A DNA stretch of 64,000 nt. It comes from a virus. The stretch spans positions 14,515 through 78,514 of IMG/VR virus record IMGVR_UViG_3300041964_000068; one strand, written 5' to 3'. The notes under the pieces were generated by a model, which searched no databases, was not told the DNA's origin, and saw only the letters and a program-made list of their open reading frames with translations. Both the position numbers and the translations under genes were made by a program. This document shows, in pieces, positions 6,644 to 64,000 of this stretch; the first letter of the stretch is position 1; the number at the start of each line of letters is the position of its first letter.

Positions 6644-9600
6644 ATGGCCCAACCTCCTATTCTCGTCCTTACCCCGGCCTGGAGCCTCCAGGAAAAGCAC
6701 AAGACCGAAAACTACGCGACCCCGCTCGGAGATGGCTACGCTCAGCGGGCGATCGGCGGCATGAGTTCGGCCTTGGTTGAATGGGAGGTGAGCCGAACGG
6801 GACTCACCGAGGCGCAAGTAAATGCGCTGTTTGCTGAGCTTGAACTATACACAGGAGTTACAGGCTTCCAATGGCGTCCCGACCCCACGATCGGCTATCA
6901 GGTCTATACCTGCGAGCGGTGGAACAAGACACCGATGGGCGGAATGTATGGCAAATTAGCGCCACGTTTACCGAAGACGTTTCAGGCCAGTGTGTTGCCG
7001 CTCTTGACGAACTCGACACAACTGAGGTGACAGCTGGCTGAGCGCGGCGAATACCTGGATGGCGACCTTCTCGCGCAACACTCAGCCGATGATCGCCAAC
7101 ACGGTAGCAGGCAAGCCCTACTTACTTGTCAATGCCTTTCACGATGTTCTTGGGCGCGGGCGGTTACTTTCCCGCATCCGCAGGGACGACTGAGGGGCAG
7201 TTCTTGATGATCCGCGCCTGTCTCGCGGTCTTCGCCAGACCGGAGTACAGGCTTGGCGGCAACGCGCGATTGACATGGCGGAACCGCTTGAACCTGTACT
7301 CTATCGCGGCGTCACCGTCCCTACAAACACGAATACCGTCTGGTTGCCGCACTGGGTTTTTAACGTCAAGTCCAGCTTTACCGCCAAGGGTAAGGTCAAC
7401 GCTGACCGCTGGCCTATGGATACTTTGACGTGCTAGTGAGCTTTACTAATGGCGTCGGGCAAATCTCTACAGGCTCTCCCAACGATGGGGACAGCTCAGT
7501 GATGTTTTTTCGGTCTACGCCACAGGTGCAAAACTACTCTGGCAAAACGTCTACGCTCCGGTTGTTTTCGGCACGAGCTACGCGATCGAGTACTGGGTTG
7601 CAAACTTCATGCTGGCGGGGCAGAACTACCGCATCTACCCCACGACAGCGGCTAGTAACGGCACACCCCCAATTCCAACGAACGAAGCCGCAGGCACAAT
7701 CAAGCTGACGACAAGCTTTACAGGACAGCTAAAAACTTGCTATGCCGCCTACACCGGGGGGACGATCGGCGTCAATCAGGTTTTCGATCCTACCCAATGT
7801 GGAGAAGCTTGCTAACGGGAGAAATCAACAGCGCTACTGACGTGCATTGGTGGGCGTGGGAAGCTTACGAACTCCTGTACACCTATACCGGGAACGAGAA
7901 GTGGAAGCGAGCGGCTGACACCACGAAGTACAGCACGGTAATTACCTCGGTCGTCGAGAATCCGACGCACTGGTACAAGCAGGAAAACAATCCTGATCCG
8001 TTCGCCTATCCCGGAACGCAAGTTGTTCAAGCGAACAACACGAACGGCTACACCGCCAGCCGTGTAACCAGCGGCACGTTTCTAAATTTCATTCAGCTTG
8101 CCGTCAACGCTGCACCCAACGGGACATTTCCGAGTATCGAGGTGCAGAAATTTCGCGGTGCAGGCCAAGATCGAAGAGAACGTTACCGTGTCGGCGCAGG
8201 CGGGACGATCGATCGCCGGACTCATTGAGGCCGCGCTTTCAACTTCCACAGATCCCTTTGACCTCACCAAAACCTATACGGCAAATTGGGCAATCACCGC
8301 CAACGCCATCAACACCCGAACTTTTCTACCTGGGGAATTTATTCTCTGGAGTACAAGCTATTTGGTTTGGTATCCGACGATTGCGGAAACACCAATTTAC
8401 ACCTACTCAGGCGGTGGGGGTACAGCGTCCGGCATTTTCTACGGACATTCAGACGTGCCCGAAGATGGCCTAAATTATCGACCTGTTATTGCTCAGCTAG
8501 CCCTAAATGCGGGTTCAGGCGGCTTTGCAGTGCGGGCTTAGTCCTAATCGGCAAAGCAATTCGTAGACCTCCCTACCTACACTATCGGTTTAAACGGTAC
8601 GGCGGTTTTGCGGATCACGGACGCTAGCGGATTCAAATGGGATTGCACCCTTGCTCAAACTTCGTCAAACGCCAAACACAGGCGGATGGACGAAGCGACA
8701 ATTTTCAGTGGGGAGACTTCAACTTTTCAAGCACAAACAGCGGCACGATCCCGGTTCACCCGACAATCAAGGAGCAATTACCGCGATCGAAGTTAATGGG
8801 ATTGCAGGACAAGGGCAATGCACTTTCGGGATTTACTGGGCTGCGAAAACGCCAGAAAAGAGCCGGAAAGACTACCGTTTCCTTGCGTTGTTTACAAGGG
8901 AGCGCTTGTCTCTCGCGCTAAAACAAGCCACAACTTTTTTGTAGGGAATTTCCGGCCTGTTGGCAGCACTTCAGACGCCTTACTGTATAATCCCGGCGTC
9001 TGTGCCGTTTACCGTAAACATTGTCAACAACATCGTAGATGCGTGGCGCGGAATTCCCTACGTAGGATATCAAGACCCAATCTGGTATGACTGGGGCTAT
9101 CCCGATCGCGGCGATCAAGTGCTGGAATTTCTCGCGGCCTCACAAGCTGCCTACACCCTTTCGACCGGAGTCGTGGGTGGATTTGCCCCTGCTTTTTAGC
9201 TGGGGATACTGGGATGCTTCCGACTATCTCGCCAACGGCCTCAATCAGTTTGGCTGGGCGGGCGCTGATCCGAACACCAGTTGGGGACAGTATGGCTATC
9301 GACCGCTGGAAGCGACGGCGAAGACTTGGTATAAAAATCCTCGCAACACTAAAGCGCGAGAGATTGTGATGCGGTTTCTGAGCATGATGGATTCGCATTA
9401 CATTCGCAACAACACGAATATGCCGTTCACAGATTTCAAGCCCGCTGCTCCGCCTTTTGTCGGCTATCACGATCCGGCAGCTTCAGCCCTAATCGGGCGG
9501 GCGGCGATCTACGCCAATCTTGCGGGCGGCAGTCCGGCTGTCACCTATCGGGTACTCACCCGCACCTATCGACACCTCAAATCTCAGTACGTCAGTAGCG

Positions 9601-10623: not shown

Positions 10624-11261
10624 TATGATCCTCCCCAAAGTAGCTGTAGCGTGGTGTTGGTGCGGCAGAGGCGCGAATCCGGATCGCTTGGGCGAAGAAA
10701 TCGCGCAAGTCAAACGCCAGGATCACCTTTCCGGTCGTGGCGGCAAGCAGGGTCGGATCAACGTTTGAGCCGTTTGTGTCACCACTCAAGCGCAAAATCG
10801 AGTTAGCGAAGGCGCGGTTTAAAATGCGTTCCGGTGTTCAAATGAATCTGCATATCGCTGTCTGCATGAGCGCGAGTCGCGATTTCAAGACCTGTGAGCG
10901 GGTTGCCTCCGGTGTTGTTGATTTGAATCCGAAAGCGGGTAAAACCCTCGGTGACGATCGTCTGCCCAGCGCTAGCCGTCAACGCCACGCCCCCCGTCAC
11001 CGTCAATGTCGCGGTTGTGCGTAGGTCGCGTTGGCAATAGTATTAACCGCTAGCCGCCCCGAAACCAGATTCGCAGGGAGCCTGTTCTCGGTATCAACCA
11101 AGTTGCGTTATCGTTACGAGGTTGGTGTTGACGGTATCGAGCTTGGCGTTTGCGCCGGGGTCAATTCTGATGAAATCATCCCCAGCGCCGCCATTGTCCT
11201 CGACTCGCGTTGAGCGCGGCGTGTTGACTCCATCGATATACGGTCGTGTAACAATTGCCAT
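10624..11261 (-). CDS. Putative minor tail / structural protein (frameshifted)
   Basis: ATG at 11261 (MAIVTRPYIDG...); fragments 10803..11006 and 10238..10795; directly downstream of J. Confidence 0.5.
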
Positions 11262-11276
11262 AATTTCAACCTATGC

Positions 11277-13956
11277 CTAAATCAATACAAGTGCCTGTGA
11301 ACGAGTCAAATTCAGGCTTCCGTTCGCCGCCGTCACGACAGGAGAACTCACCCGCCAATCTGATATCTTGCCGTTGAGGTCGATCGCCGCCACGCGAATA
11401 AAATAAGTACCCTGGCTGACACCTTCAAAGCGCGTTTCATAGCTCCCCTTAATCACCGTGCGCGTATCCTGCCAGGTGATTCCGTCGCGAGAGTATTCCA
11501 CGTACACGGCTTTAATCAAAGCGGCAGTCGCGGCGTTCAGCGTCCAGCCCGCCACGAGGGGTGTAATCGATCGTCGTATTCCTATCACCGCAATAGCGCC
11601 AGCCGTCACAGCAGCAGGCGGCGTGACAACGGTGGGGATTGAGAATCGCGTCGGCGCGGCCTCAACTTCGACCTGGCTTTCGATCGCGGCGTACTTGCTG
11701 GGGTTGTACTCGATCGCGTTAATTTCAACCCGCGTCGGATCTCCGGCCTTGGGTGCAACGCTCACCACGCGAAAGGTCTGAGGCTGCACATTAGGGTCAC
11801 GGACAATCCAGTTGGACTCCGCGAGCGGAACTTCCGAGAAAGCTGCTGTAACAGCAATTACGCTGGCGACACCTGTCCCTGAAATCGTGCGGGTTTGCAG
11901 CGCACCGGACGGCAGCATAACCGTGATCGTGAAACCCGCGCCAACCACGACCGGAGAATCGAGGGTGACAGTCGTAGCGGTGGCGGCGGCAATCAAACCG
12001 CCGTAGCGAATATTGGCAAATTCATCGTCTGCAACTTGAATCACCTCGCCGGGGCGGCAGTAAGCGGCGAAGCTACGAGCGGTAAACGAAACACTGCGAG
12101 TTTCATAACGGCTCGAATACAGCGCCCAGCGCCCTACCCGAATTGCCAGCGCCCGCGACGTACAGCCGAAGGCGGCGATTTCGATTTCGCGAATGCCGTA
12201 CTTGTTAATCCCAACAACATCCTCAACCGTCTCAACCGCTCGCTGGTACTCGTCTTCGGGGTCGTTCCAGGTCACACGCGCAACCGTGTGACGAGCGCGA
12301 ATCGCCGTGCTGGAGTAGGTAAACCTGCCTGAAATATCCGCCTGGGTGAACTGCCGCACCGGAGTAGCGGGGCGATCTTGCCAGAATTTAACAATCCCGC
12401 CGCTCCAGTACGGCTTCATGTGGCAAGCGCTGCAAAATGCGTTAATCACCTCCCACGCTTTTTCTCCCGACTGCAACTGCGTGTTACAGCTATACCGCCG
12501 TTCGCTATAGCCAAGTCCAGTGGGGAGCATCTGATTGTTGTAGACCGAGCATTCGTACAAGTTCCATTTATCAATCAGCGAATCCTCGATCGAGCGCCCC
12601 AGGCCGTAGCGATTATTCGTGAGCAGATCAAATAAATGCCACACCGGATCGGCGCAGGCTTTCGAGGGAACGTAAAACGTGCCGTTCCAGGCTCCCGAAA
12701 AGTTCAGCCCGCGATCGGCGGCAACGGTGGCGTTAGAGGGAATCCGCACTCGCCGCCCCGCAATCTTGTACTGTCGCTGCGGGATAGAGGAGAACTGCTC
12801 AGGCTGAAAATCAAGCAGGACGTAGGCGGTGTAGGGATAGTTGAGCTTGTTTTGGATGACCTCGGTGTAGCTTGACCACTGGAGTTTTTGGACTTTTTTC
12901 TGTGAGGTTGAGTCGCTAGAAATCTTGGTGATCCTGACCTGAACGTATCAACCGTGCCGCCTTGGTTGTTCACCTTGAAGGCGTACTCAAGCTCGGTGGG
13001 GCTGGAGAATTTGCCTTGCAGGTTTTTCTGATAGCGCGTCTGCCAAGCCGCTCCGCCCTGCTTCACCTCAATGCGGTACTCGATATCCGTGCCCGAAACG
13101 TCGCCATCGTCTTCATATTTGACAAGCGTTACCGCAATCCGCACCCGGATCAGGTCAAGCTCGCTATTAACGATCGATCGGGTTGTTGCGCCCAGTGAGT
13201 TTTTCACCTCGACGTTGACGCTTGTTTCTGAGGCGATTTCTTCGCCATCGCCTGCAATAATGCTTTGCCCCGGCGAACCCCGGCGCAATTTGTACTTGAA
13301 GCCCTTAAAGTTGAGCGAACCGTCTGCGTTTTGTACCGGGGTCTTATCGAGCAAGATACCTTTACGAGCGCCAACTAGCCCCTCAATCTGCCCCTCAGAA
13401 ATTGCCTCAAGCACATAGGCTCTACTGGTCGATCGGCCTGTGTCGTCGGCCTCTTGCGGCGATCCAGCGCTCTTGCCGCCGCCCATGTTGCTAACGCGAA
13501 TACCGTGTTCGCCTACTAGGTAGGTGTGAGTGTATGCAACCGTGATGTTGTAGACCGTCTCGGTGCTGCGATAGCGCCACCCTAAGAGCTTGCGGGCAAG
13601 ATTCGCGCCATCATAAAGCAGATCTCCCGGCGACAGCTTTCCGACTTCCTCGAAAGCTGTCTCACCGCCTAAGTAGCCTGCGACAAACCAGTGATTCGGC
13701 GTGGCGGGAATCATCCCGCCCTCATAGTCGTACTCCCAGACACCGTGCCCTTCGTGGATATGGGTTTCGGTAACGTAGGAGCTAACCACGTTGCCGCGCT
13801 TGTCAAAGCAGTAAACGTAATCTCCGACATCTAGCTCGCAAATTGGCCTCAAGCCGAGCGGCGTCTGCACACAGACATCCGCCGGAAAGCAGCCGCCGAA
13901 GCTGCCGGAAAGAAGGGGAGGGCGTTCTCGGTCTTCGCAGGGTTAGCTGTCTTCAT
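11277..13956 (-). CDS. Tail tip / host-specificity protein J (TipJ) with N-terminal Hint domain; frameshifts near 13905, 12950 and 12750
   Basis: ISEGQIEGL...KTPVQNADGSLNF, WNGTF...DPVWHLFDLLTNNRYGLG and FGCTSRALAIRVGRW are lambda J motifs; FN3-like C-terminus. Confidence 0.9.
13487..13891 (-). other. Hint (intein-like, BIL-type) domain, 135 aa, no endonuclease
   Basis: Begins CFPADVCVQTPLG; block B ATPNHWF; block F VYNITVAYTHTYLV; ends GIRVSN followed by Met. Confidence 0.85.
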
Positions 13957-14060
13957 CAGACTTACCCCGTCTTAAGCTTAAGCTTGATAAAATAGAGACG
14001 AAAACACCCCGCGATGCTGGACACATCCGGGGAACGGAACGCCTAACAGGAGTAGGGTTC

Positions 14061-14733
14061 ATGAATATTCTACCGATTTCTGTCGAAGAGTTTTCGATTG
14101 CAGAAATTGAGCGGTTTTGGGATAAGGTCGATCGCAGCGCGGGTGATGATGGTTGCTGGCTGTGGACGGGTAGACTTGACAGAGGTGGATACGGCTCGGT
14201 CTGGCGAGGCAGGAAAAAAAGAGCTACACCTGCACACAAATTTTCATTCACATCTTTGCGCGGAGAAGTCCCAAAAGATCTGCAAGTTCTGCATCGCTGC
14301 GATGTAAGGAATTGCGTCAATCCAAAACATCTTTTCTTGGGGACAATTGCCGACAACATGGCTGACAAAACAGCGAAAGGTCGGCAGTTGAAAGGAGAGA
14401 AGATTAAAGCTTCAAAATTAACTGAGGCTTGATGTTTTGCAAATCAAAGAATCAATGGTTTCTGTTTGTCCGAGCGAGCTAGCAAAGCGGTTCAACGTAG
14501 CTCCAAGAACCATTCGAGACATCCTCAATGGACTCACCTGGAAGCACGTTGGCGAAGACACGAAAGGCGTCGAGCGATTCAGGCTTAGGAAAAGACTGTC
14601 AGACGACGAAGTGCGGCAGCTTAGAACACTTGCCAAGCAGACTTCAACCAAAGCAGCGGCAATTGCATACGGAATTCCGTATATTTCTGCGTGGCAAATC
14701 GTGATCGGGAAAAACAGAAAGAATGTCATCTAG
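14061..14733 (+). CDS. Free-standing HNH homing endonuclease with C-terminal HTH repeats (frameshift near 14430)
   Basis: CWLWTG...GYG...AHK...VLHRCDVRNCVNPKHLFLGTIADNMAD; continues in 14437..14733. Opposite strand to the tail operon. Confidence 0.88.
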
Positions 14734-15357
14734 CCGTCCTCGTCCAGACTTTCGTCGTCCACCAGCCATGAACGGATTGAAGCGCTGAGGACTTGTGAAC
14801 CCACGAGCATCCCGTCATCGAAAACGCCGGATTTGTAGCCGCAGCCTCCGTAGACCAGAGGAAGCCTGCCACCTTGGGCGGTCGTATTTTGACCACCATT
14901 GAATATGAGGCTGGGCTTCTTCTCGTCGTCGTTTGGATTGGGCGCGGCAGGCTGATTAAACAGCCCCAGGATGCCTGAGAGCGCCATCGTTCCGCCAACC
15001 AGGGCAAGAGTCGAAGACGAAAGGCCGAGAATCCCCACACCCGCCAAACCCAGACCCAGTAAAGCCGACGCCGAGAATAATCTTGCCGAAGTTCCCCGCC
15101 CCCATCAGCACAGGAGCAATGGTGATCGACTGCTGTCCGGTGGGGTAGTGAAGATGCTTCTCCTCAATATTCCAGTCCCCGACATACACCTCATAGGCGT
15201 AGCCCCGCTCGTGCGATCGAGCCAGATGCGAGCGAAAGGCGGGGAAGTTCGCCTCCATGCAGGACACGGCCTCACGTACCGAGTTCACATCCGCCACAAG
15301 CTCGCCCACAAACAAATCGGCTAGCTCGTCTTTGAGAATGATTTTCGTTTTCGGCAC
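14730..15357 (-). CDS. Tail assembly protein I (lambda gpI-like), frameshifted near 15050
   Basis: Ubiquitin-like N-terminus, APVLMGAG, hydrophobic segment, NTTAQGGRLPLVYG...VGSQVLSA. Confidence 0.88.
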
Positions 15358-16163
15358 TACATCAACTCCTTCCAGCGCAACCGCTGCACCGTGACATCAC
15401 GCCAATACGCCCCATAGACCCGCTTTTCAGAAACTCGTGGCGGCTGGAGATGGTGAAGGATTTCGGGCTTGTGAATATCGGTGATGATGCCGCAGTGATG
15501 CGCGACTTCCCCTTCCATCGTCATCAACACCAGATCATGCTGCTGTAGCGGCGAATCGAGATCGACCGGAACAAACCCGATCGAGGGCATCGCCTCAGTA
15601 AACCGATCCCAGCTTCCCGTTATCTGCTCTCCCGGCGTTGGGGCGCGATCGAAGTCGGGCAAGTCCAGCCCCAACATTCCCCGGTAGTAATACAGCGCCA
15701 CCGTCCAGCAATCCGACCGTCCCCACACCCAAGGCCAGCCGAGATAGAACTCCACGACTTGAGGCGTTCCGCTCCGTTCTTGCAGCGGGAAAGGGTTGAG
15801 GCTTGCCGGATCGAAGTAGTCCCAGGTTTTATCTGTGGCGTGAAACAGCAGGTAGGGTAGCTTTGAGCGCTTGCTCTGCCGGATATCCTCGAAGCTGAGA
15901 TAGCCGGGATGATCGTCGGCAAAATGGCTGTGATAGAGCGCTAAGATTTCGTACTTTTCCGAAAGCTGATCGAAATACTTGCGATCGATCACGAATCCGG
16001 CCTTTGGGTCAGGCGCAAGATTATCAGACTCCAGGACATCTATCGCGTCTGTTTCACGGTCGCGCCCAATCATGCCGCAGACTTCTTGATCTGGGAAGAT
16101 CTCAGCGTGGGTTTGAATGCGAACTAAAACCGTCTCATCAAACGGGGGAAGTAAATCAGGCAC
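15357..16163 (-). CDS. Tail assembly protein K (JAB/MPN plus NlpC/P60)
   Basis: EVCG...YHSH...SFED; WVWGRSDCWT...HCGI...ILHH. Confidence 0.92.
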   Translation of the reverse strand: MPDLLPPFDETVLVRIQTHAEIFPDQEVCGMIGRDRETDAIDVLESDNLAPDPKAGFVIDRKYFDQLSEKYEILALYHSHFADDHPGYLSFEDIRQSKRSKLPYLLFHATDKTWDYFDPASLNPFPLQERSGTPQVVEFYLGWPWVWGRSDCWTVALYYYRGMLGLDLPDFDRAPTPGEQITGSWDRFTEAMPSIGFVPVDLDSPLQQHDLVLMTMEGEVAHHCGIITDIHKPEILHHLQPPRVSEKRVYGAYWRDVTVQRLRWKELM

Positions 16164-16248: not shown

Positions 16249-17064
16249 TTATCTCGAATCGCTTTCCACATAGGGAGTAAAACGATTGTTCTTTGCCATG
16301 TTTTCTTTCGCTGTCAGGATTTGCAGATTTTCAGGAACGTGCAAACCTTGCACCAGTGGATGAATTAGCGGAATGATGTGATCTACTTCGTGCTTGATTC
16401 CCGTCTCTTCCGTAAGCTGAGCCGCTTTTTGGTAGACAGCTTCGATCGCCTTGAAGTCAGCCCAGGCCGGAGTTGCTTGCAGCTTGGCAGCGCGGCGCTT
16501 GTTTGCCCACGCCAGCACTTTTACTTTGTTCTGCCGTTTGTAGCGACGATTGTCTTCGCCGTGACAGGACTTGCACCACGAAGAAAGGCCGGAACTTCCA
16601 GCTACAAACGCTTTGAAGTGGGACGAGTCAAGCATTTGCTTGCATCTTGTGCAAATCTTCTGCTCAACCAAAGTTTTGGCCGGATCAAGTTTAAGCTTTT
16701 CGTATCGGGCTTTTTTCTGCTTTGAAGCGCAGCTTTTACATTGAGATTCCCTACCGCAAGGTTCCTTTTTGCTTCGGTAGAAAGACTCCATCGGCAAAAT
16801 AACGCTGCATTTCGAGCAGGGCTTTTCAGTAGGCGGAGTATATGGAATCGGGGGATTTAGCTCAAGTTCTTTCTTGCGCCTTTCTCTCTTCGTCTGTACG
16901 TTGATCTGTATCAGGCAAGATTTGCATTTGGAGCCATGCCGTCTCCCGCGAAATGTGTAATAGTCGCCTTCCGGTTTGGGAACAGAGCAAACAGTGCAGA
17001 CGATCGTTTTATCGCTAGAAGGTTTCTCGCAGTCAAGGCCGAGTGAAAGCTGTACAATATTCAT
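16249..17064 (-). CDS. HNH endonuclease with three N-terminal CxxC zinc-ribbon repeats
   Basis: HEVDHIIPL...VQGLHVPENLQILTAKENMAKNN; repeated CxxC...CKSC units. Confidence 0.88.
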   Translation of the reverse strand: MNIVQLSLGLDCEKPSSDKTIVCTVCSVPKPEGDYYTFRGRRHGSKCKSCLIQINVQTKRERRKKELELNPPIPYTPPTEKPCSKCSVILPMESFYRSKKEPCGRESQCKSCASKQKKARYEKLKLDPAKTLVEQKICTRCKQMLDSSHFKAFVAGSSGLSSWCKSCHGEDNRRYKRQNKVKVLAWANKRRAAKLQATPAWADFKAIEAVYQKAAQLTEETGIKHEVDHIIPLIHPLVQGLHVPENLQILTAKENMAKNNRFTPYVESDSR

Positions 17065-17171
17065 GGCTGAACCTACTGATACTAGGCTTGGCGTCGAACC
17101 CTTGAGATTGGCCTCTCAAGGGTTCATTCGTGCTTATTGTAACATAAGCCATACGTAATTGTTAAGAAATG

Positions 17172-18171: not shown

Positions 18172-18243
18172 GAGTTCGGGTTGACTTGCGCTTAAGCTGA
18201 AGCTAAGCAAAGTCTAGTATCCTGCGGCAGAAGGAAGGACGGA

Positions 18244-18624
18244 ATGACGGAAAATCGTGAGCAGGAGCAAATTCGGGTACTCGAAGAGAGACTTGGGGAA
18301 CTAGAAAGAATCACCCTAGAAGATCGAGAAGCAAGGTTTCAGGGCATCGAGCGCAACCTGCGAACGGTTCAGCGGCAGGAGCGGCGACAACAAGGCTTAC
18401 TCCTGAGCTTGGCGGTGGCGACACTGGTCGGGCTGGCGGGGATGAAATATCAGGACGGCAAGTTCTCCTGGTTGTTGGACACAGAAAAAACGCGAGAGCT
18501 AGTTGAGCTTCTCGCGCCAATTGTTTCTACGTTAGGCGTGGGGGCGGGTTTGACGATGGCGGTTCGATCGACCAAAGACCCGAAGCCTTCAGCACCCGAA
18601 CCCGCCGAAGACCCAGAAGCCTAA
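18244..18624 (+). CDS. Membrane protein with coiled-coil N-terminus, holin-like
   Basis: Two hydrophobic segments; AAGGA RBS. Confidence 0.5.
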   Translation: MTENREQEQIRVLEERLGELERITLEDREARFQGIERNLRTVQRQERRQQGLLLSLAVATLVGLAGMKYQDGKFSWLLDTEKTRELVELLAPIVSTLGVGAGLTMAVRSTKDPKPSAPEPAEDPEA

Positions 18625-18929
18625 ACCGACATCTTGGCGGGAGATGCCGGGACAACCTTCCACCCCTGCTTGAAAAGATACTGATAGGCGGCGTACCCCA
18701 AAGAATGCGATGCCAGGTTGTCAGTCTGCGGGATCACTCCGGTCTTGGCAATCAGATCAATTTGCAGCGCAGATCTTTCATTGACTCCCTGCTTCTCCGC
18801 TTCCACCGCTCCGGGATGCGTCCAAAACGGCTCCCATTCGTAGGCAGGATCTAGTCGCCAGTGCAGAATCTTGCGCGAGTCGGTGTTTTCGTATCCCTTC
18901 AACGGCTTCCAGCAAAGTTGTCCAGGCAT
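18621..18929 (-). CDS. Hypothetical protein
   Basis: GGAG RBS, clean ORF. Confidence 0.65.
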   Translation of the reverse strand: MPGQLCWKPLKGYENTDSRKILHWRLDPAYEWEPFWTHPGAVEAEKQGVNERSALQIDLIAKTGVIPQTDNLASHSLGYAAYQYLFKQGWKVVPASPAKMSV

Positions 18930-18980
18930 ACTTTCTCCTAAGCTTAGGTTTAGGCCAACAGCGAATAAAAAAAACGGGGT

Positions 18981-19247
18981 CTAGAATTCGTCTTCAGGTG
19001 TGGTTTCCGGCTCCCAGACTTCCAGTAGCTTGCAACCTTGAAACCGAGCGTTGGCAAGCTCTTGAATCTGCTCTACCCAGCTTTCGCGATCAACAAGTAG
19101 CCGGATCTTGATCTGATGGGCGTCGTCTTTGTGTTGCAGCTTAGCATACACAATTCGGGTCAACTCGTCAGGAATCCCCTCGGTGCTGGGGTGAACAAAG
19201 ATGATTTGGTGATAGCGGCAGTCGAACGTCTTGATTGCTGTAAACAT
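18981..19247 (-). CDS. Hypothetical protein
   Basis: Clean ORF in the leftward operon. Confidence 0.6.
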   Translation of the reverse strand: MFTAIKTFDCRYHQIIFVHPSTEGIPDELTRIVYAKLQHKDDAHQIKIRLLVDRESWVEQIQELANARFQGCKLLEVWEPETTPEDEF

Positions 19248-19278
19248 TTGGTGTTCAAATCCTACTGTTGATGTTGCG

Positions 19279-19638
19279 TTACAAAGAATCTGGAGCTAGC
19301 TCAATCTCTTCCGATGCTTCAGCTAGCTCCTCAATCAAAATCGAAATCCAAACTAGGGGATCTAAATTCTGAGGCATACCAAACCTTACATCCTGCCTAA
19401 TCCGTTCTTGCTTGATCTCCTGTTCAATCTCAAGATTTACGTCCACCTCAGACCGCCCCTGCGAAAGCCGAAGATCAGTCAGCGCGGCGATTGCAGATGC
19501 CGCTACCTGAATCAATTCTGTTTCGTAGTTTGCCGAAGTTTGCCGCTGGTAGTGCAAATTCAAGTCCGGGGAATCTCGCACTTCTCTAGCAGCTTGTCCT
19601 AACTCTGAGAGTTGCTTGCTCAATTCTTCAATCTCCAT
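19279..19638 (-). CDS. MazG-like all-alpha nucleotide pyrophosphohydrolase, apparently circularly permuted
   Basis: NYETELIQVAASAIA precedes ERIRQDVRFG-PQNLDPLVWISILIEELAE, the reverse of the usual order. Confidence 0.7.
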   Translation of the reverse strand: MEIEELSKQLSELGQAAREVRDSPDLNLHYQRQTSANYETELIQVAASAIAALTDLRLSQGRSEVDVNLEIEQEIKQERIRQDVRFGMPQNLDPLVWISILIEELAEASEEIELAPDSL

Positions 19639-20005
19639 CAGACCTCCAAGAAAATATCAATGTACTGAGCTTCTTTTGTCGGCGCTTTTTCCCAAGCCGA
19701 TTCGATGTGCTGAATTACGGTCAGGTTGTCATCGCGCATAATCCCGGCCTTGACCATTGCATCCTCAACCGCTTTGAACAAATTGGAGAGGTCATAGCGC
19801 CTGTCCCACCCGTAGAACTGCATTGAGAGCTTCTTGATCCACTGAAGGGTTTCTTTCCAGTCCAGGCCGCTCCGCATTCTTGAGCAGCTTGTCTTTTCCA
19901 GTTTCGATAGGCGGGCTTGTAGTAGGCCACGCCCCGGCTCACCTGCGCCCGCTGGCAGGGATAAGGAGGTAGATGCAACCGGATGTGAATGCGATCGTCA
20001 GGCAT
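19638..20005 (-). CDS. rusA: RusA-family Holliday junction resolvase (frameshift near 19860)
   Basis: PYPCQRAQV...YRNWK and YDLSNLFKAVEDAM...IMRDDN catalytic motif. Confidence 0.85.
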
Positions 20006-59481: not shown

Positions 59482-60200
59482 TTAACCCTCAAGTCCGCGC
59501 GCTCCCGGCAGTCCCGGTGCAACTACGGCGCTGAGTCGATAAAGTCCTTGAATTCCGTGCTTGATGTAGTACGGCGCGATTAATTTTTGGATTTCATGGT
59601 TATCTACGCCACAAAACCAACTCAAGAACGGGAAGGCATGATGTGTAGGGCATGGTCATCGCTAAAGCCGACATACTCACCTTGCGAATCCGTGCAGGTT
59701 GGGCAAAACGTACCCGTCACGACATCATGCAACTGTCGAGCAGCGTCGAATCCGGTTGAACGTCACAGCTTCGACGAAAGCTGAGCCCGCTTGATGCGCG
59801 GTTTCGAGAGTCATAATCATGCCGCCGTTACCGTACGGCGCAAGATATCAATTGTTCTCGACATAGCTACCCGCCGAAGCCCAGACGATCGGGTCAAAGT
59901 CAGAGCCTCCCGCAGTCAGAACAGCGAGATTCGACCTCGACGATGTGCGCCTCGTGCATGTAGCCGTGTGACGCACCCACTTCATCCCAATTGTGATCGA
60001 CGCAAAACGGGATTATCCCGGAGCCATATACGCCATCTCCATCACCGCTCAGGACTCCAGCACCCGCCGCCGTGCTGCATGAGGGAGTGAGACGCTAGCC
60101 AGGATCGTGACGAGTTCGTTGGATTGATAGTTATCCATGCCCTCGGCTTGTAGCGATTAATCATGGCAAGCTGCCTTCACTCGCGGCGTCCCCATTCTCC
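59482..60200 (-). CDS. Error-ridden remnant of a probable prohead protease gene
   Basis: Reverse-strand fragments VDHNWDEVGASHG, FCPTC and IAPYYIKHG...LSAVVAPGLPGA; position upstream of the capsid gene. Confidence 0.4.
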
Positions 60201-60299
60201 AGTTCAACTCGCGGCCTGTCGTGCGGGCGATCGACTGTCAACCTGCGGAAGAAGCTCTCTTCGGGACGGAGAGGTTGAGCTTGCTTTCAACTGGGGCGT

Positions 60300-63200
60300 G
60301 ACGCTGAAGGGACGGCTTAAGAGACATGGGGGGAGAACTCACCCCGCCGCCCTACCCGCCCCCATTGCCCCCCCCGCCCCTGGCCTGCCTCCACCGCCGG
60401 CCCCGTGCCCAGCGCACCGGGACGCAGACCCCCTCGCCTCATTACCCCCTTCGCCGGCCCATCGGCCCCAAGTCCGCCGCTGGCACCCGGGCACTCCGGC
60501 CGCCCCCACCGCGACCCAATCCCCCCCCCACTAAGGGCGGTGCCTACAGCAAAGCACAGGAACAACCACACCATACAAAGACAGCGAAAACCGCAGCGCC
60601 AATACACGGCAGAACACACAGTCCAGCCGGTGACAAACGAACAAGACAAACACCAAAAAACCAGCCACGCAGCCAACAAGGGAAACCAGAGCATGACACA
60701 GAGACCCATTTTATAACCTGCAAACCCAAAACGCAGCACTTAGCACGGGGACCACAGTGCCGCCAACCACCGCGGAAAGCCGCAGCCACGGGCCGCATAA
60801 AGTCAGATGCCACGAGTGCCACAGTCACACACCCAATATAGGCACCCCTGGTTAAAGGAAGAAGGCCCACCCCCGAGCCCAAGCGACAGAAAGACCACGC
60901 CACCAGGGAGGACAATGAGGAGGAGCTCGCGGGAGAGACTAGCAGCCCGGACAGCGCCAGCACAGGGCAACCGCCAGGGGGCCGCGAGCTACCCACACCA
61001 CGGCAGAGCAACCGCCCACCGCCGCCGCGACCGGCCCGCTGATATGCAAGACGCAGCATCCAGCAAGCCGGCCACTATTGGGGCATCCAGCACGCTCCGC
61101 CCACCTCATCACAAACCACAGGAAGACACCCGGTAAGCAAACGTCCCCAGCCCCACAAATACGACGCCCCGATAAAAGACAGCCAACCCAACGCAGACAC
61201 ACACAAAAGAGGACGGAACCAGCAAGGAGGGGAACACCGTAACCAGCACCAACTGAGAGTGACAGAGGGAGAGCCAAAGTAACAGCAGTAACGACCGCAC
61301 GCCATCACCCAGGGGAGCCCGGACACCTAAGACAACATAACAAAGACGAAGGAGAGCGCAAACCCCCTCAACGACCACCGGTAGCAACAAGCAACGCACA
61401 GAGTAAAGAACAAACAGCCAACACCCAGCACAACACGTTACAGAATAAGCCACGGAGGGCAAAGCACTACAGCCAGCCCCCCATAGTCGAACCACCCGCA
61501 GAACATAGCCGCCCAAAGCGCACCCCCCGCCCTGCCCCAGTCCTCCCCTCCAGAGACTCTTTCCGCACACCCATTCCCACAACCCATCCCCCCGTCAGAG
61601 CACCCCGCCCGGGCCGGTCACCCCCCTCCCCTCTAACACAGCACCACTCCTCTCGCTAACAGCACTGGGAGCGCCAACACACACGCACAGCCCAAGAACC
61701 TAGACTAACAGTAGCGATCAGAAACACCACATGTGCGGAGATCGCTCACAGCACAATAGCAGAGAGCAAAGATCCCCCCAAACCAACCAGAAGCAGCAGC
61801 AGGGCAACACAGGTAGAGCAGTAGCACGCGGGTCATAGCACGTGGCCAACCATACATTCGATAACCGCAGACGAGACATAAGACGTAGAACAGCACGCCA
61901 AGCGCCCCCCAAGACCGCAGCCCCGCAGGGCCTGGCCAGTAGGCAACACAGCCAACCCCCGACAAGCCGAGCCCCCCAACAACTCACGACACACCAGCAC
62001 AGCTCCCCTCGCTCCTGCTAATCCAGTCAGGGAGCAGCAGGCCCGGGCCACTTACACAACACAGAGACTATACGCAGACAGCCGGAACCCCGCGGTGTGA
62101 AGTCATGCCCCCCCCGACCAACACCAGGAATAGAAGTCCGCCCCACAGCGAAACCAACAACAATAGGACCCACCACAAGACAGACCGCAGGGCAGTAGCA
62201 TCGCCGGACCCATGGCAAGAGCGAACAACAGTAGAGGACACAAACGCAACCAGCATGAAACCAGACAAAAAGAAAACACAACACCCCGCAGGAACAAACA
62301 AGACAACCTGAGTCAGCCACACACTACATTGATAACAATAGACACACAAACACATGGGAGACAGAACACGACGAATAAGCCTCAGCAACATCATAGCGGC
62401 AGCCAGCGAGAAACCAAACAAGCAGCAGCCCGACACCAGAACAACTACAGAAGGACAGGAAATGACCAGAACAAAATATATCCCACAGCACAAGCAAGAA
62501 ACGGGGAAGGATCAAATGACAAAAAGCGCCGGCCGCAGAAACAACTACACCTAAGCGACCATCATGACATATTCTCACCCCTTCCCACGACGGAGCACCC
62601 GCACTTACGGGTCAATAACCCCAAGCGGACAAAACATCAGGCCAAAGAAAACAACAACAGACCACACCAATAAGAAGATGAAAAAGTAAAACAGATCCAC
62701 CACAAGCCAGAGGCACCAGACAGTTTAAGACCCCCAAGCAACCAAGCAACAAAACAGCCGAATCCACCATAGCGAACACAGGGGACAAGAAACAAGCGCA
62801 GAGGGACAAGCATCATAGAGACGCCACAGACCCACGGAGAAAACAGGACCACGCCCCCCCCCCCTTGCCGGCCCCCCGTAACTACCTCCACCCGACCGCT
62901 CGCGGCACCGCGAGCCGGACTCCTCGCTCGGCCCGGCACCCCCAGAGCCCTCCTACGACCCCCAGCCACCCCTACGAGAACCACCACCCACGCCCCACAA
63001 AAGCAACCTGATGCCCGAGCCGAACCCGCACGAACAGCACCCCCCAACAAACGGATAACACGCACAGACAGAAACCCGCGGAAGCCACCACTATTCGAAA
63101 TCGCCACCGAAAGCCACGACAAATAACGAGAACAACCCACCACACTACTCCCCCCACCCCCCCCCGCACCCCCCCAGCAAGGGCACAGCGCCACCGACAG

Positions 63201-64000
63201 CAGCAGAGACACTAGGAGAGCGACACACAAACCCCGAGGCCAAGACACCTCCCGGATCCCCCCGCCCTAAGCCCCAACCGCTAACGCAAAATCAGCAGCA
63301 ACCCGCCACACACCGCCGCCCCGCAAGCCTAAGCCACCGGACAGGACCCTCTACACAACCAACACAAGTACGAAAAGCCAGAAAAACCAACCCGCACACG
63401 ATCCCAGCAGACGCCAGGAAAACCCACCCCAGCAAACCCCCAAGCACCGCCAACCCAGCCCCTCCACCGTCGGCCCACGCCGCAATAGTCAACGCTCCGC
63501 CCGGCCCCATCGCCCACCCTAGACGGGTTCTACAATCATCCCCGAGCACTACAACCCAACTACGCACAACCCCCACCCCGGGCCATGAGCCCCCCACCCG
63601 TCATCCCCATGGCAGACAACAGGACACGCCCCATCCAGACCGCACACCGCCCGACCCGGCCCCCGGCCAGCGCCAGCTCCGCCCCACCCCCTCCCCCGCC
63701 CGCCACGCCCGACGGCCAGGGACACCCCCGAGCTTCGGCCCCCCCCGCGCCAGGAGCTCGGGTCGGCCCCGGCCAGGCCTGGCCCGGCCCCGCGAACTCC
63801 GCGCTCCCATATCCGCGATGTCTCCCGGCCCACCCCGCACCTCGCAGGCGTATTGTTCCTACGCCCCCAGCGGCGCCTTCCGGCCTGCCTGCGCGAGTCC
63901 CCCGCCGGGCGCCCCCCGCCCGCTGCGACGTTCCCGACGACAACGGCTGACCCATCGCCTCCAGCCGCAACCTCGCGGCCAGCCCAAACAGGCAGCTAAA
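60300..64000. other. Low-quality / artefactual sequence (C/A-rich, T-depleted, long C runs)
   Basis: Abrupt composition change, loss of CGATCG, only low-complexity ORFs; preceded by rising error density. Confidence 0.85.

Follow-up and report, generated by a model that had tools for sequence, protein, structure and literature searches.

The gene for a lambda gpJ-like tail-tip protein (TipJ; J hereafter) in an uncultured, cyanophage-like virus carries a Hint domain of the bacterial intein-like (BIL) type close to its start. We studied it in a 64,000-nucleotide stretch of IMG/VR record IMGVR_UViG_3300041964_000068 (positions 14,515 to 78,514 of that record; the window), where it lies on the minus strand. 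Judged by comparison with related sequences, the Hint is an insertion within the conserved glycine run of J, intein-like in its placement. Self-excision of some kind is very probable, given the residues that the sequences retain and the analogy with characterized BILs. We give an even chance to the fuller reading, in which a type-A BIL-like Hint seated in the J glycine run (h-x-G-S-G-G^G-G-K) removes itself once leader-Hint-J has been translated.

Read in the Hint frame, the protein runs ...LLSGSFGG/C-F-P-A-D...H-G-I-R-V-S-N/M-G-G-G-K-S-A-G (Table 1), and the first-pass annotation of this DNA, which described a 135-residue Hint from Cys1 to VSN followed by Met and GGGKSAG, holds on the minus strand. 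The conserved blocks of the window Hint (A, C1; B, TPNH; F, VYNITV..HTY; G, VSN) all match invariant columns of 126 relatives. The TipJ part contains two domains over threshold, FNIII-A_GpJ (PF24801, 66.8 bits) and Phage-tail_3 (PF13550, 82 bits), and matches the PHROGs family phrog_31, 'central tail fiber J', at E 7.5e-155. From Met +1 onward the protein aligns with the starts of J families, entering phrog_2589 and phrog_1727 at profile positions 9-11, and GGGKSAG is indeed a normal J start, as had been proposed.

Proteins of the same family that have no Hint reveal what the insertion interrupts. We identified 54 Hint-less J relatives (735-813 amino acids, 35-53% identity) in which the same type of leader runs directly into the Gly-Lys motif, for example M..LSGSGGLFGGSPSS.., M..IIQGFGGLGGSKKP.. 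and M..IIGAGGGGKGGGG.., giving an uninterrupted h-x-G-S-G-G...G-K peptide. Because leader and glycine run are contiguous in these proteins, the leader is J's own N-terminus. The earlier idea of a cap with a foreign leader is therefore abandoned, since the Hint-less relatives have the equivalent peptide unbroken. Precise insertion, with intein-free alleles in which the flanks are joined, is a trait of inteins and is seen here in all 54. Likewise, removing the Hint from the window in silico yields ..LLSGSFGG-MGGGKSAGSP.., which can be aligned with Hint-less J starts. The insertion is bracketed by a short direct repeat, GGCGGC, and this repeat might offer a simple route for precise Hint loss or for its transfer between glycine tracts.

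To place the domain, we used a family profile made from a 32-sequence alignment (A2). Its top match among solved structures was the Clostridium thermocellum BIL 2LWY (8.8e-24, 87.7 bits), followed by the Tetrahymena BUBL BIL2 (6TMM/6Y75; 2e-17, 66.9 bits), by 8W20, a protein labelled 'intein C-terminal splicing domain', and then by true inteins, including gp41-1 (2e-14, 57.2 bits), DnaE and RecA. The window sequence alone keeps this order by a small margin (2LWY 2.7e-5, DnaE 8.8e-5). An AF2 model of the Hint reached a predicted local distance difference test score (pLDDT) of 86.8, with the core above 90, and a predicted template-modelling score (pTM) of 0.81. Foldseek ordered its relatives as 2LWY (template-modelling score 0.89 on the target), BUBL BIL2 and gp41-1, and each of the top matches listed was, at probability 1.00, a BIL, an intein or a Hedgehog Hog domain. 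Since profile and fold searches both rank 2LWY first, we assign the domain, on sequence and model, to the Hint superfamily and group it with the type-A BIL/PT-HINT domains. The BIL-type call of the first-pass annotation is thus supported, type-A BILs being the nearest solved relatives by both routes. Within the family, 31 of 32 members match PT-HINT (PF07591) at E<=0.01, with a best value of 2e-14. The kind of domain is already known, as Pfam annotation tags such proteins with PF07591 and PF13403. Our literature searches turned up no description of a Hint, BIL or intein for gpJ, gpI, tail fibres or tail proteins. GenBank phages gave no blastn match to the locus, tblastn of the Hint against phages gave nothing beyond weak intein-like matches (25-32% identity), and a word-based search with the Hint region found none among longer proteins.

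Although overall Hint identity is merely 30-47%, the catalytic positions are nearly invariant. We assembled 126 unique Hint-J N-termini with a pattern that restricts the last two residues and +1, leaving only the other columns unbiased; among these, Cys1 is kept in 126, the block B Thr in 125, the block B His in 124, the block F Asn in 125 and, at the pattern-restricted end, the terminal Asn in 125. Gly occupies -1 in 117 of the 126. Where J bodies are 60-82% identical the Hints are 40-46% identical, so that the Hint diverges faster while retaining its catalytic residues. As far as sequences can tell, this pattern bears the mark of selection for autoprocessing at each of the two junctions. The first-pass annotation had proposed release of J by Asn cyclisation; the retention of the terminal Asn agrees with that part, and a mechanism based on Asn alone is too narrow, because Cys1 and the block B Thr and His are kept equally well, which suggests that the N-terminal junction is also reactive.

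The residue after the Hint separates this family from canonical inteins. Following a suggestion in the first-pass annotation, we surveyed +1 in homologues, using 72 proteins picked without regard to that position: it is G, K, A, Y or F in this set, Met in the window and Leu or Met in the relatives P0164-P0166, and Cys, Ser or Thr in 0 of the 72. Canonical splicing is thus impossible, as had been claimed, and we rejected a canonical class-1 intein on the +1 residue. Class-1 inteins also have a penultimate His, where the window has Ser. This Ser, pointed out earlier, recurs in relatives: at this pattern-restricted position the 126 N-termini have His in 107 and Ser in 18, so that most end in His-Asn, whereas the window ends in Ser-Asn, again without a +1 nucleophile. 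In other respects the class-1 mini-inteins (cyanophage-like gp41-1, Npu DnaE, DnaB) resemble the J Hint, sharing its blocks A, B, F and G as well as its fold and its size, and, like it, they occupy a conserved site of a conserved protein, are patchily distributed among relatives and have intein-free alleles with joined flanks. Besides the +1 residue and the penultimate Ser of the window, the J Hint family differs from them in having no endonuclease domain.

The module is widespread, and the initial view of it as a special feature of the window phage did not survive the searches. A HMMER scan of 1.84 billion representative proteins returned 1703 matches at E<=1e-3, of which 139 fell below 1e-10 and the best reached 9e-38. 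We sorted the best 150 of these 1703 in detail: in 72 the one Hint stands right at the N-terminus, behind a leader of 6-45 amino acids, and 59 of those 72 have J-like regions downstream by phmmer. The shared pattern is M-x(n)-[I/V/L]-x-G-[S/A]-G-G-G/C-F-...-[H/S]-N/G-G-G-G-K-.... A scan of IMG/VR gave 62 loci, about 40 of them with leader-Hint-J as one unbroken open reading frame (ORF) of 890-3188 amino acids, usually in the gene order M-L-K-I-[Hint-J]; a narrow pattern scan of genome contigs gave 3 loci. A cultured cyanobacterium, Leptolyngbya sp. PCC 7375, also has a single clean leader-Hint-J ORF (EKU98057.1), annotated as 'phage-related protein, tail component'. Automated annotation labels such genes plain 'phage tail protein', and splits them in error-prone assemblies such as that of the window.

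To our knowledge, BIL domains have been recognized for twenty years with their biological role still unsettled. The present family supplies a large natural BIL set in one defined context, the lambda-type tail-tip genes, with members in about 40 viral contigs and in dozens of protein clusters. It makes three questions testable: whether splicing proceeds with Gly, Met or Lys at +1, whether J normally loses its N-terminal peptide, as gpI would lose the tail of its ubiquitin-like domain, and whether thioester chemistry takes part in tail assembly.

Several relatives carry more than one Hint. Tandem arrays occur in P0002 and L059-L061, and many of the best Hint matches (P0001, P0005, P0007, P0008 and others) have 2-5 tandem Hints joined by short Gly-Lys linkers; the start of P0001 resembles a signal peptide. 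In one subset a second full leader motif follows the Hint, as HN/GGHRERYPVVTGSGGGG.... Extra Hint copies also lie mid-protein in very long J-like ORFs of L044, L049, L051, L055 and L058, at residues ~680-1110 and after ..GDVYSCSY.GT/C, and in L062 (7812-11012) a Hint occupies an internal Gly loop, KVGKGGGS/C...SN/GGGGKTTSYTY, of an Rcc01698-like tail protein.

The J bodies allowed us to follow the history of the insertion. A FastTree phylogeny was built from 77 J bodies without Hint and leader; to explain which of them have a Hint, at least 7 changes must be assumed, and well-supported branches force 5 of these. The window J falls in an all-Hint clade of 8 (support 100), and the Hints are monophyletic inside J clades B, C and D. 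The nearest J relatives, P0161-P0163, share 81-83% identity with the window in the N-terminal part of J and 68-69% in the rest (71% for the window J against P0162), and all bear a Hint with the junction HN/GGGGK. The window Hint itself groups with those of P0164-P0166 (support 92), which form clean single ORFs with the junctions SN/L (P0164, P0165) and SN/M (P0166, as in the window). The Hints of this SN/[M/L] lineage, though diverged to 44-47% identity, have stayed intact. A locus search starting from P0166 returned Hint-less J genes only. Overall, the Hint behaves as a vertically inherited insertion that has been gained or lost repeatedly.

As assembled, the window sequence has a break just before the Hint. 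The ATG at 13956 sits 65 nucleotides (not 66) upstream of Cys1 and hence in a different frame; in the frame of the Hint a TAA stands at 13945-13943, and from this stop to Cys1 there is neither ATG nor GTG nor TTG. Of the leader of about 22 residues described in the first-pass annotation, the LLSGSFGG end stands, being in the Hint frame and resembling the leaders of relatives (P-Q-LSGSGG...), whereas the ATG does not connect to it as assembled. An in-frame 22-residue leader requires one extra base within 13942-13918, for example in the CCCTCCCC run, and the frameshift falls within a CCCTCCCCTTCTTTCC stretch. Two further apparent frameshifts lie nearby, in J at 12940/12941 and in the tail assembly gene gpI at 15063/15064.

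We therefore compared 11200-15500 with short-read contigs from four public biocrust metagenome runs (X1-X4) of two independent studies. Contigs from X1, X2 and X4 have one extra base at 12940/12941, which restores the J frame through ...DTFQVRITK...., and contigs from X1, X2 and X3 have one base fewer at 15063/15064, which restores the gpI frame. Both frameshifts are thus one-nucleotide indels private to the window's assembly. The contigs of the four runs leave uncovered 13918-14518, where the leader indel site, the ATG, a free-standing HNH endonuclease gene and part of orf103 lie; we draw nothing from this gap. Since the two neighbouring frameshifts are absent from the short-read contigs, the leader frameshift is probably an assembly indel as well, and other broken ORFs of the window contig may share this cause. 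The X1 contig over 13381-13917, an independent one, aligns with the window without gaps, differs by three synonymous changes and V22I, and keeps VSN/M; the junction is therefore not a sequencing error. In this contig we also looked for the Cys, Ser or Thr at +1 that, according to the first-pass annotation, polishing might bring to light: Met stays, and the exclusion of canonical splicing stands. A programmed -1 frameshift in the leader was considered and rejected, there being no X-XXY-YYZ heptamer and the neighbouring frameshifts being assembly errors.

The same evidence bears on the possibility that the Hint is a dead ORF in the window phage, the frameshift before Cys1 being real and perhaps linked to the HNH gene, with J initiated independently at Met 13486. 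We regard this as very unlikely. It would fit a Hint frame that lacks a start codon as assembled, an ATG standing exactly at +1, where most relatives have Gly, and the insertion of the HNH gene immediately upstream. However, two of the three local frameshifts proved to be assembly indels, the catalytic residues are all intact and the variant differences are synonymous or conservative. The sister sequences P0164-P0166 carry Met or Leu at +1 in clean single ORFs, and reading by eye found no Shine-Dalgarno-like sequence ahead of 13486.

We infer the chemical steps of self-excision from the directly observed anatomy of leader-Hint-J and its conservation. By analogy, the J Hint is expected to follow type-A BIL chemistry, that is, thioester formation and Asn cyclisation leading to cleavage, with optional aminolysis; it resembles 2LWY and the PT-HINT domains in its Cys1, its block B T-x-x-H, its terminal Asn and its missing +1 nucleophile. 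Cys1 would attack the Gly(-1) carbonyl in an N-S acyl shift to give a thioester, and Asn135 would cyclise to a succinimide, freeing J, which would now begin at Met +1 (in most relatives, at Gly +1). BILs have no +1 nucleophile and so cannot form the branched intermediate (PMC4031507). As the J Hint has no such nucleophile either, the thioester would be resolved by hydrolysis and the leader discarded, while a fraction of it might be attacked by the freed alpha-amine, so that the leader is re-ligated by BIL-type splicing. Type-A BILs combine an N-terminal thioester with C-terminal cleavage by Asn cyclisation; attack of the liberated amine on the thioester (aminolysis) can let them splice, with cleavage products dominating (PMC4031507). 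Some features set the J Hint apart from these domains. The BILs described so far are found in polymorphic toxins and in variable parts of proteins that bacteria secrete, whereas the J Hint belongs to a phage structural protein, where it occupies a fixed, conserved N-terminal glycine motif; it has poly-Gly on both sides, and in the window it ends in Ser-Asn, not His-Asn.

That cleavage products are the main functional outcome is, in our estimate, as probable as the opposite, and ligation as the main outcome is rather doubtful. Loss of the leader is favoured by the reported dominance of cleavage in the type-A BILs tested, by the subset with a duplicated leader motif, by the tandem Hints and by the likeness of the site to a predicted protease site (see below). 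Obligate BIL-type splicing, in which the freed alpha-amine of +1 attacks the Gly(-1) thioester and mature J has the leader rejoined to GGGK..., so that the element would count as a true though non-canonical intein, appears unlikely, if by no means negligible. It would agree with an N-extein homologous to the N-terminal peptide of Hint-less J, with the invariance of Cys1 and block B despite so tiny an N-extein, and with the presence of Gly at -1 and, in most cases, also at +1, the pair that hinders aminolysis least. Hints within gpI and in the internal loop of the J-like L062 protein would moreover split folded proteins unless the parts were ligated, and type-A BILs are documented to splice although they have no +1 nucleophile (PMC4031507). 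Yet cleavage products were reported as dominant in the type-A BILs tested (PMC4031507), the Met or Leu at +1 in the window lineage is less favourable than Gly, and ligation is hard to square with the duplicated leader motif and with the tandem arrays. The leader may also be dispensable, as lambda J is not known to have one.

Several points weigh against a self-removing type-A BIL-like Hint in the window. The window Hint alone scores 23.5 bits against Pfam Hint, below the cutoff of 29.7, and its sequence has no match to PT-HINT at E<=0.01. With the ATG out of frame as assembled, expression of the Hint hangs on a candidate one-nucleotide correction. Asn cyclisation or aminolysis could be slowed by the penultimate Ser, which replaces His, and by a +1 Met that is bulkier. 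Strict retention of Cys1 with a short-peptide N-extein is not obviously needed for a role in cleavage only and fits ligation or transfer better. Finally, the support for every member of the family is from sequence and model.

The glycine motif at the insertion site is shared with another protein of the operon. The lambda tail-tip module (PMC1779556) has the gene order M-L-K-I-J, and the window has this order and these families too. In gpI (TAPI) of that module, a glycine-rich linker joins a ubiquitin-like (Ubl) domain to a C-terminal one, and the JAB domain of gpK is predicted to cut TAPI after the last Ubl glycine (Iyer et al. 2006, PMC1779556). Unlike the window, where the Hint is in J, other phages have a Hint in the TAPI linker. 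The gene lying between K and J in L040-L058 has a product of about 438 amino acids (for example L040:7641-8954 and L044:7638-8948), and in L040 and L044 the phrog_32 Ubl covers residues 1-115, a PT-HINT over the Pfam threshold covers residues 128-250, and the rest matches a tail-protein family. The junctions read ..IIPVLEGAGGGGGG/C...HN/GGGGKGGGG..., so the layout is Ubl-polyGly, Hint, GGGGK and the C-terminal part of TAPI, and the Hint splits the glycine linker exactly at the predicted JAB cleavage site. In the text of PMC1779556 'intein' occurs 0 times and 'hint' only as an ordinary word, and no Hint domain is mentioned.

Within single phages, the tail of the gpI Ubl and the J leader share one motif, Hint-less proteins included: P-h-h-x-G-S/A-G-(G)-K in gpI and h-h-x-G-S/A-G-G...G-K in J. 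The comparison took in the window (14733-15357 against 13892-13920), L008, L024, L028, L030 and L042. Examples are APVLMGAGNFGK and LLSGSFGG..MGGGK in the window, PAIAGSGK and AISGSGG..GGGGK in L008, and PVIEGSSG and IDIEGSGGS in L024, with the gpI form first. The shared motif may be a common recognition or cleavage site. The insertion is tolerated at a site in J that may be a natural processing site, since the gpI ubiquitin-like domain closes with the same motif.

This arrangement recalls the BUBL BIL2 of Tetrahymena thermophila (6TMM, 6Y75), where a BIL stands directly behind a Gly-ended ubiquitin-like module, among ubiquitin-like proteins. The BIL2 thioester attaches the preceding ubiquitin-like domain to lysines without E1 or E2 (PMC8616854). 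For the suggestion in the first-pass annotation that the thioester might ligate the Gly-ended leader to a partner, BIL2 is a precedent by analogy, and the sister phages whose Hint comes after the gpI Ubl are a parallel. By analogy, the Hints at Ubl-tail-like motifs in J and in sister-phage gpI might be a viral BUBL counterpart that couples a Gly-ended peptide or Ubl to a tail-tip lysine without ATP, E1 or E2, with the JAB domain of gpK as isopeptidase; we consider this a long shot. In the specific form, the Gly-ended leader or the gpI Ubl would be held on Cys1 and passed as an isopeptide to a lysine, such as Lys +5 or one in another tail protein, and JAB gpK would act as the isopeptidase; this too seems highly improbable to us. 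Consistent with it, BUBL BIL2 is the second-best solved relative of the Hint, Lys +5 is invariant, the J leader motif equals the gpI Ubl tail motif in the same phages, the gpI of L040-L058 is built as Ubl-polyGly/Hint/GGGGK-TAPI-C, and the operon holds a JAB domain (PMC1779556). Against it, the N-extein in the window is a peptide of about 22 residues with a Ubl-tail-like motif, not a Ubl domain, and the Ubl-BIL layout appears only in the gpI of L040-L058. The target is hypothetical, the Lys is also kept in Hint-less J and so need not relate to the Hint, and the case is wholly one of analogy. If true, it would make covalent ubiquitin-like tagging part of lambda-type tail-tip assembly. We know of no explanation for the tail-assembly roles of the ubiquitin-like protein and the JAB peptidase of this operon.

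The genes around Hint-J in the window are listed in Table 1.

Table 1. Positions of the parts of the Hint-J gene and of neighbouring genes in the window.
Feature	Position	Strand	Remarks
Leader (N-extein)	13892..13956	minus	ATG 13956, then ~22 codons ending LLSGSFGG; motif shared with leaders of relatives and N-termini of Hint-less J
Hint domain, BIL-type, mini-intein-like, 135 amino acids	13487..13891	minus	
Cys1 codon of Hint	13891-13889	minus	
Block B Thr of Hint	13702-13700	minus	
Block B His of Hint	13693-13691	minus	
Block F Asn of Hint	13549-13547	minus	
Penultimate Ser of Hint	13492-13490	minus	
Terminal Asn of Hint	13489-13487	minus	
Met +1	13486-13484	minus	Followed by GGGKSAG and the J body
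C-extein, TipJ (lambda gpJ-like) tail-tip protein	11280..13486	minus	Pfam and PHROGs
Left copy of direct repeat, GGCGGC (Gly-Gly codons)	13892..13897	minus	Directly before Cys1
Right copy of direct repeat, GGCGGC	13478..13483	minus	Directly after Met +1
HNH homing-type endonuclease gene, free-standing, between gpI and Hint-J	14061..14432	plus	Pfam HNH_3 1.7e-8; phrog_1872 1.8e-29
orf103, 103 amino acids, no matches	14729-14421	minus	Converges on HNH gene
gpI, tail assembly protein I, ubiquitin-like, Hint-less in the window	14733..15357	minus	phrog_32; assembly indel 15063/15064; Ubl tail APVLMGAGNFGK
gpK, with peptidase domains of the JAB and NlpC/P60 kinds	15357..16163	minus	Pfam NLPC_P60 3.2e-8; Prok-JAB 2.4e-4 (below cutoff); phrog_30
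Endonuclease VII/HNH-like (Lar-like) ORF between L and K	17115-16252	minus	Pfam/PHROGs
gpL	17774-17175	minus	Pfam/PHROGs
gpM	18213-17839	minus	Pfam/PHROGs

The tail-tip operon of the window is broken by two homing-type endonuclease genes, at 16252-17115 (minus) and 14061-14432 (plus). A 35%-identical HNH gene occupies the same place and orientation in L011, and just 2 of the roughly 45 distinct loci have an HNH next to Hint-J. On this count we rejected a split intein and free-standing HNH acting as one mobile unit. As gpI abuts Hint-J without an HNH in most loci, the HNH is more likely an independent homing element, separate from the Hint. In the L011 region of 6658-7152 and 7404-7904 there is also a stand-alone leader-Hint ORF of 164 amino acids with a 12-residue tail, directly after the tape-measure gene and just upstream of the opposite-strand HNH and Hint-J; this ORF may have arisen around the HNH insertion by duplication of the 5' end of J. 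On the minus strand of window positions 18213-20000 we found no tape-measure-sized ORF before gpM, only small ORFs, including one that the first-pass annotation labelled MazG-like; because no such ORF precedes gpM, the tail module looks rearranged or split. A search for tandem repeats in window positions 60001-64000 found none; this segment has an AT skew of +0.49 to +0.60, a GC skew of -0.23 to -0.35 and a GC content of 61%, a strong strand asymmetry unlike the remainder of the window.

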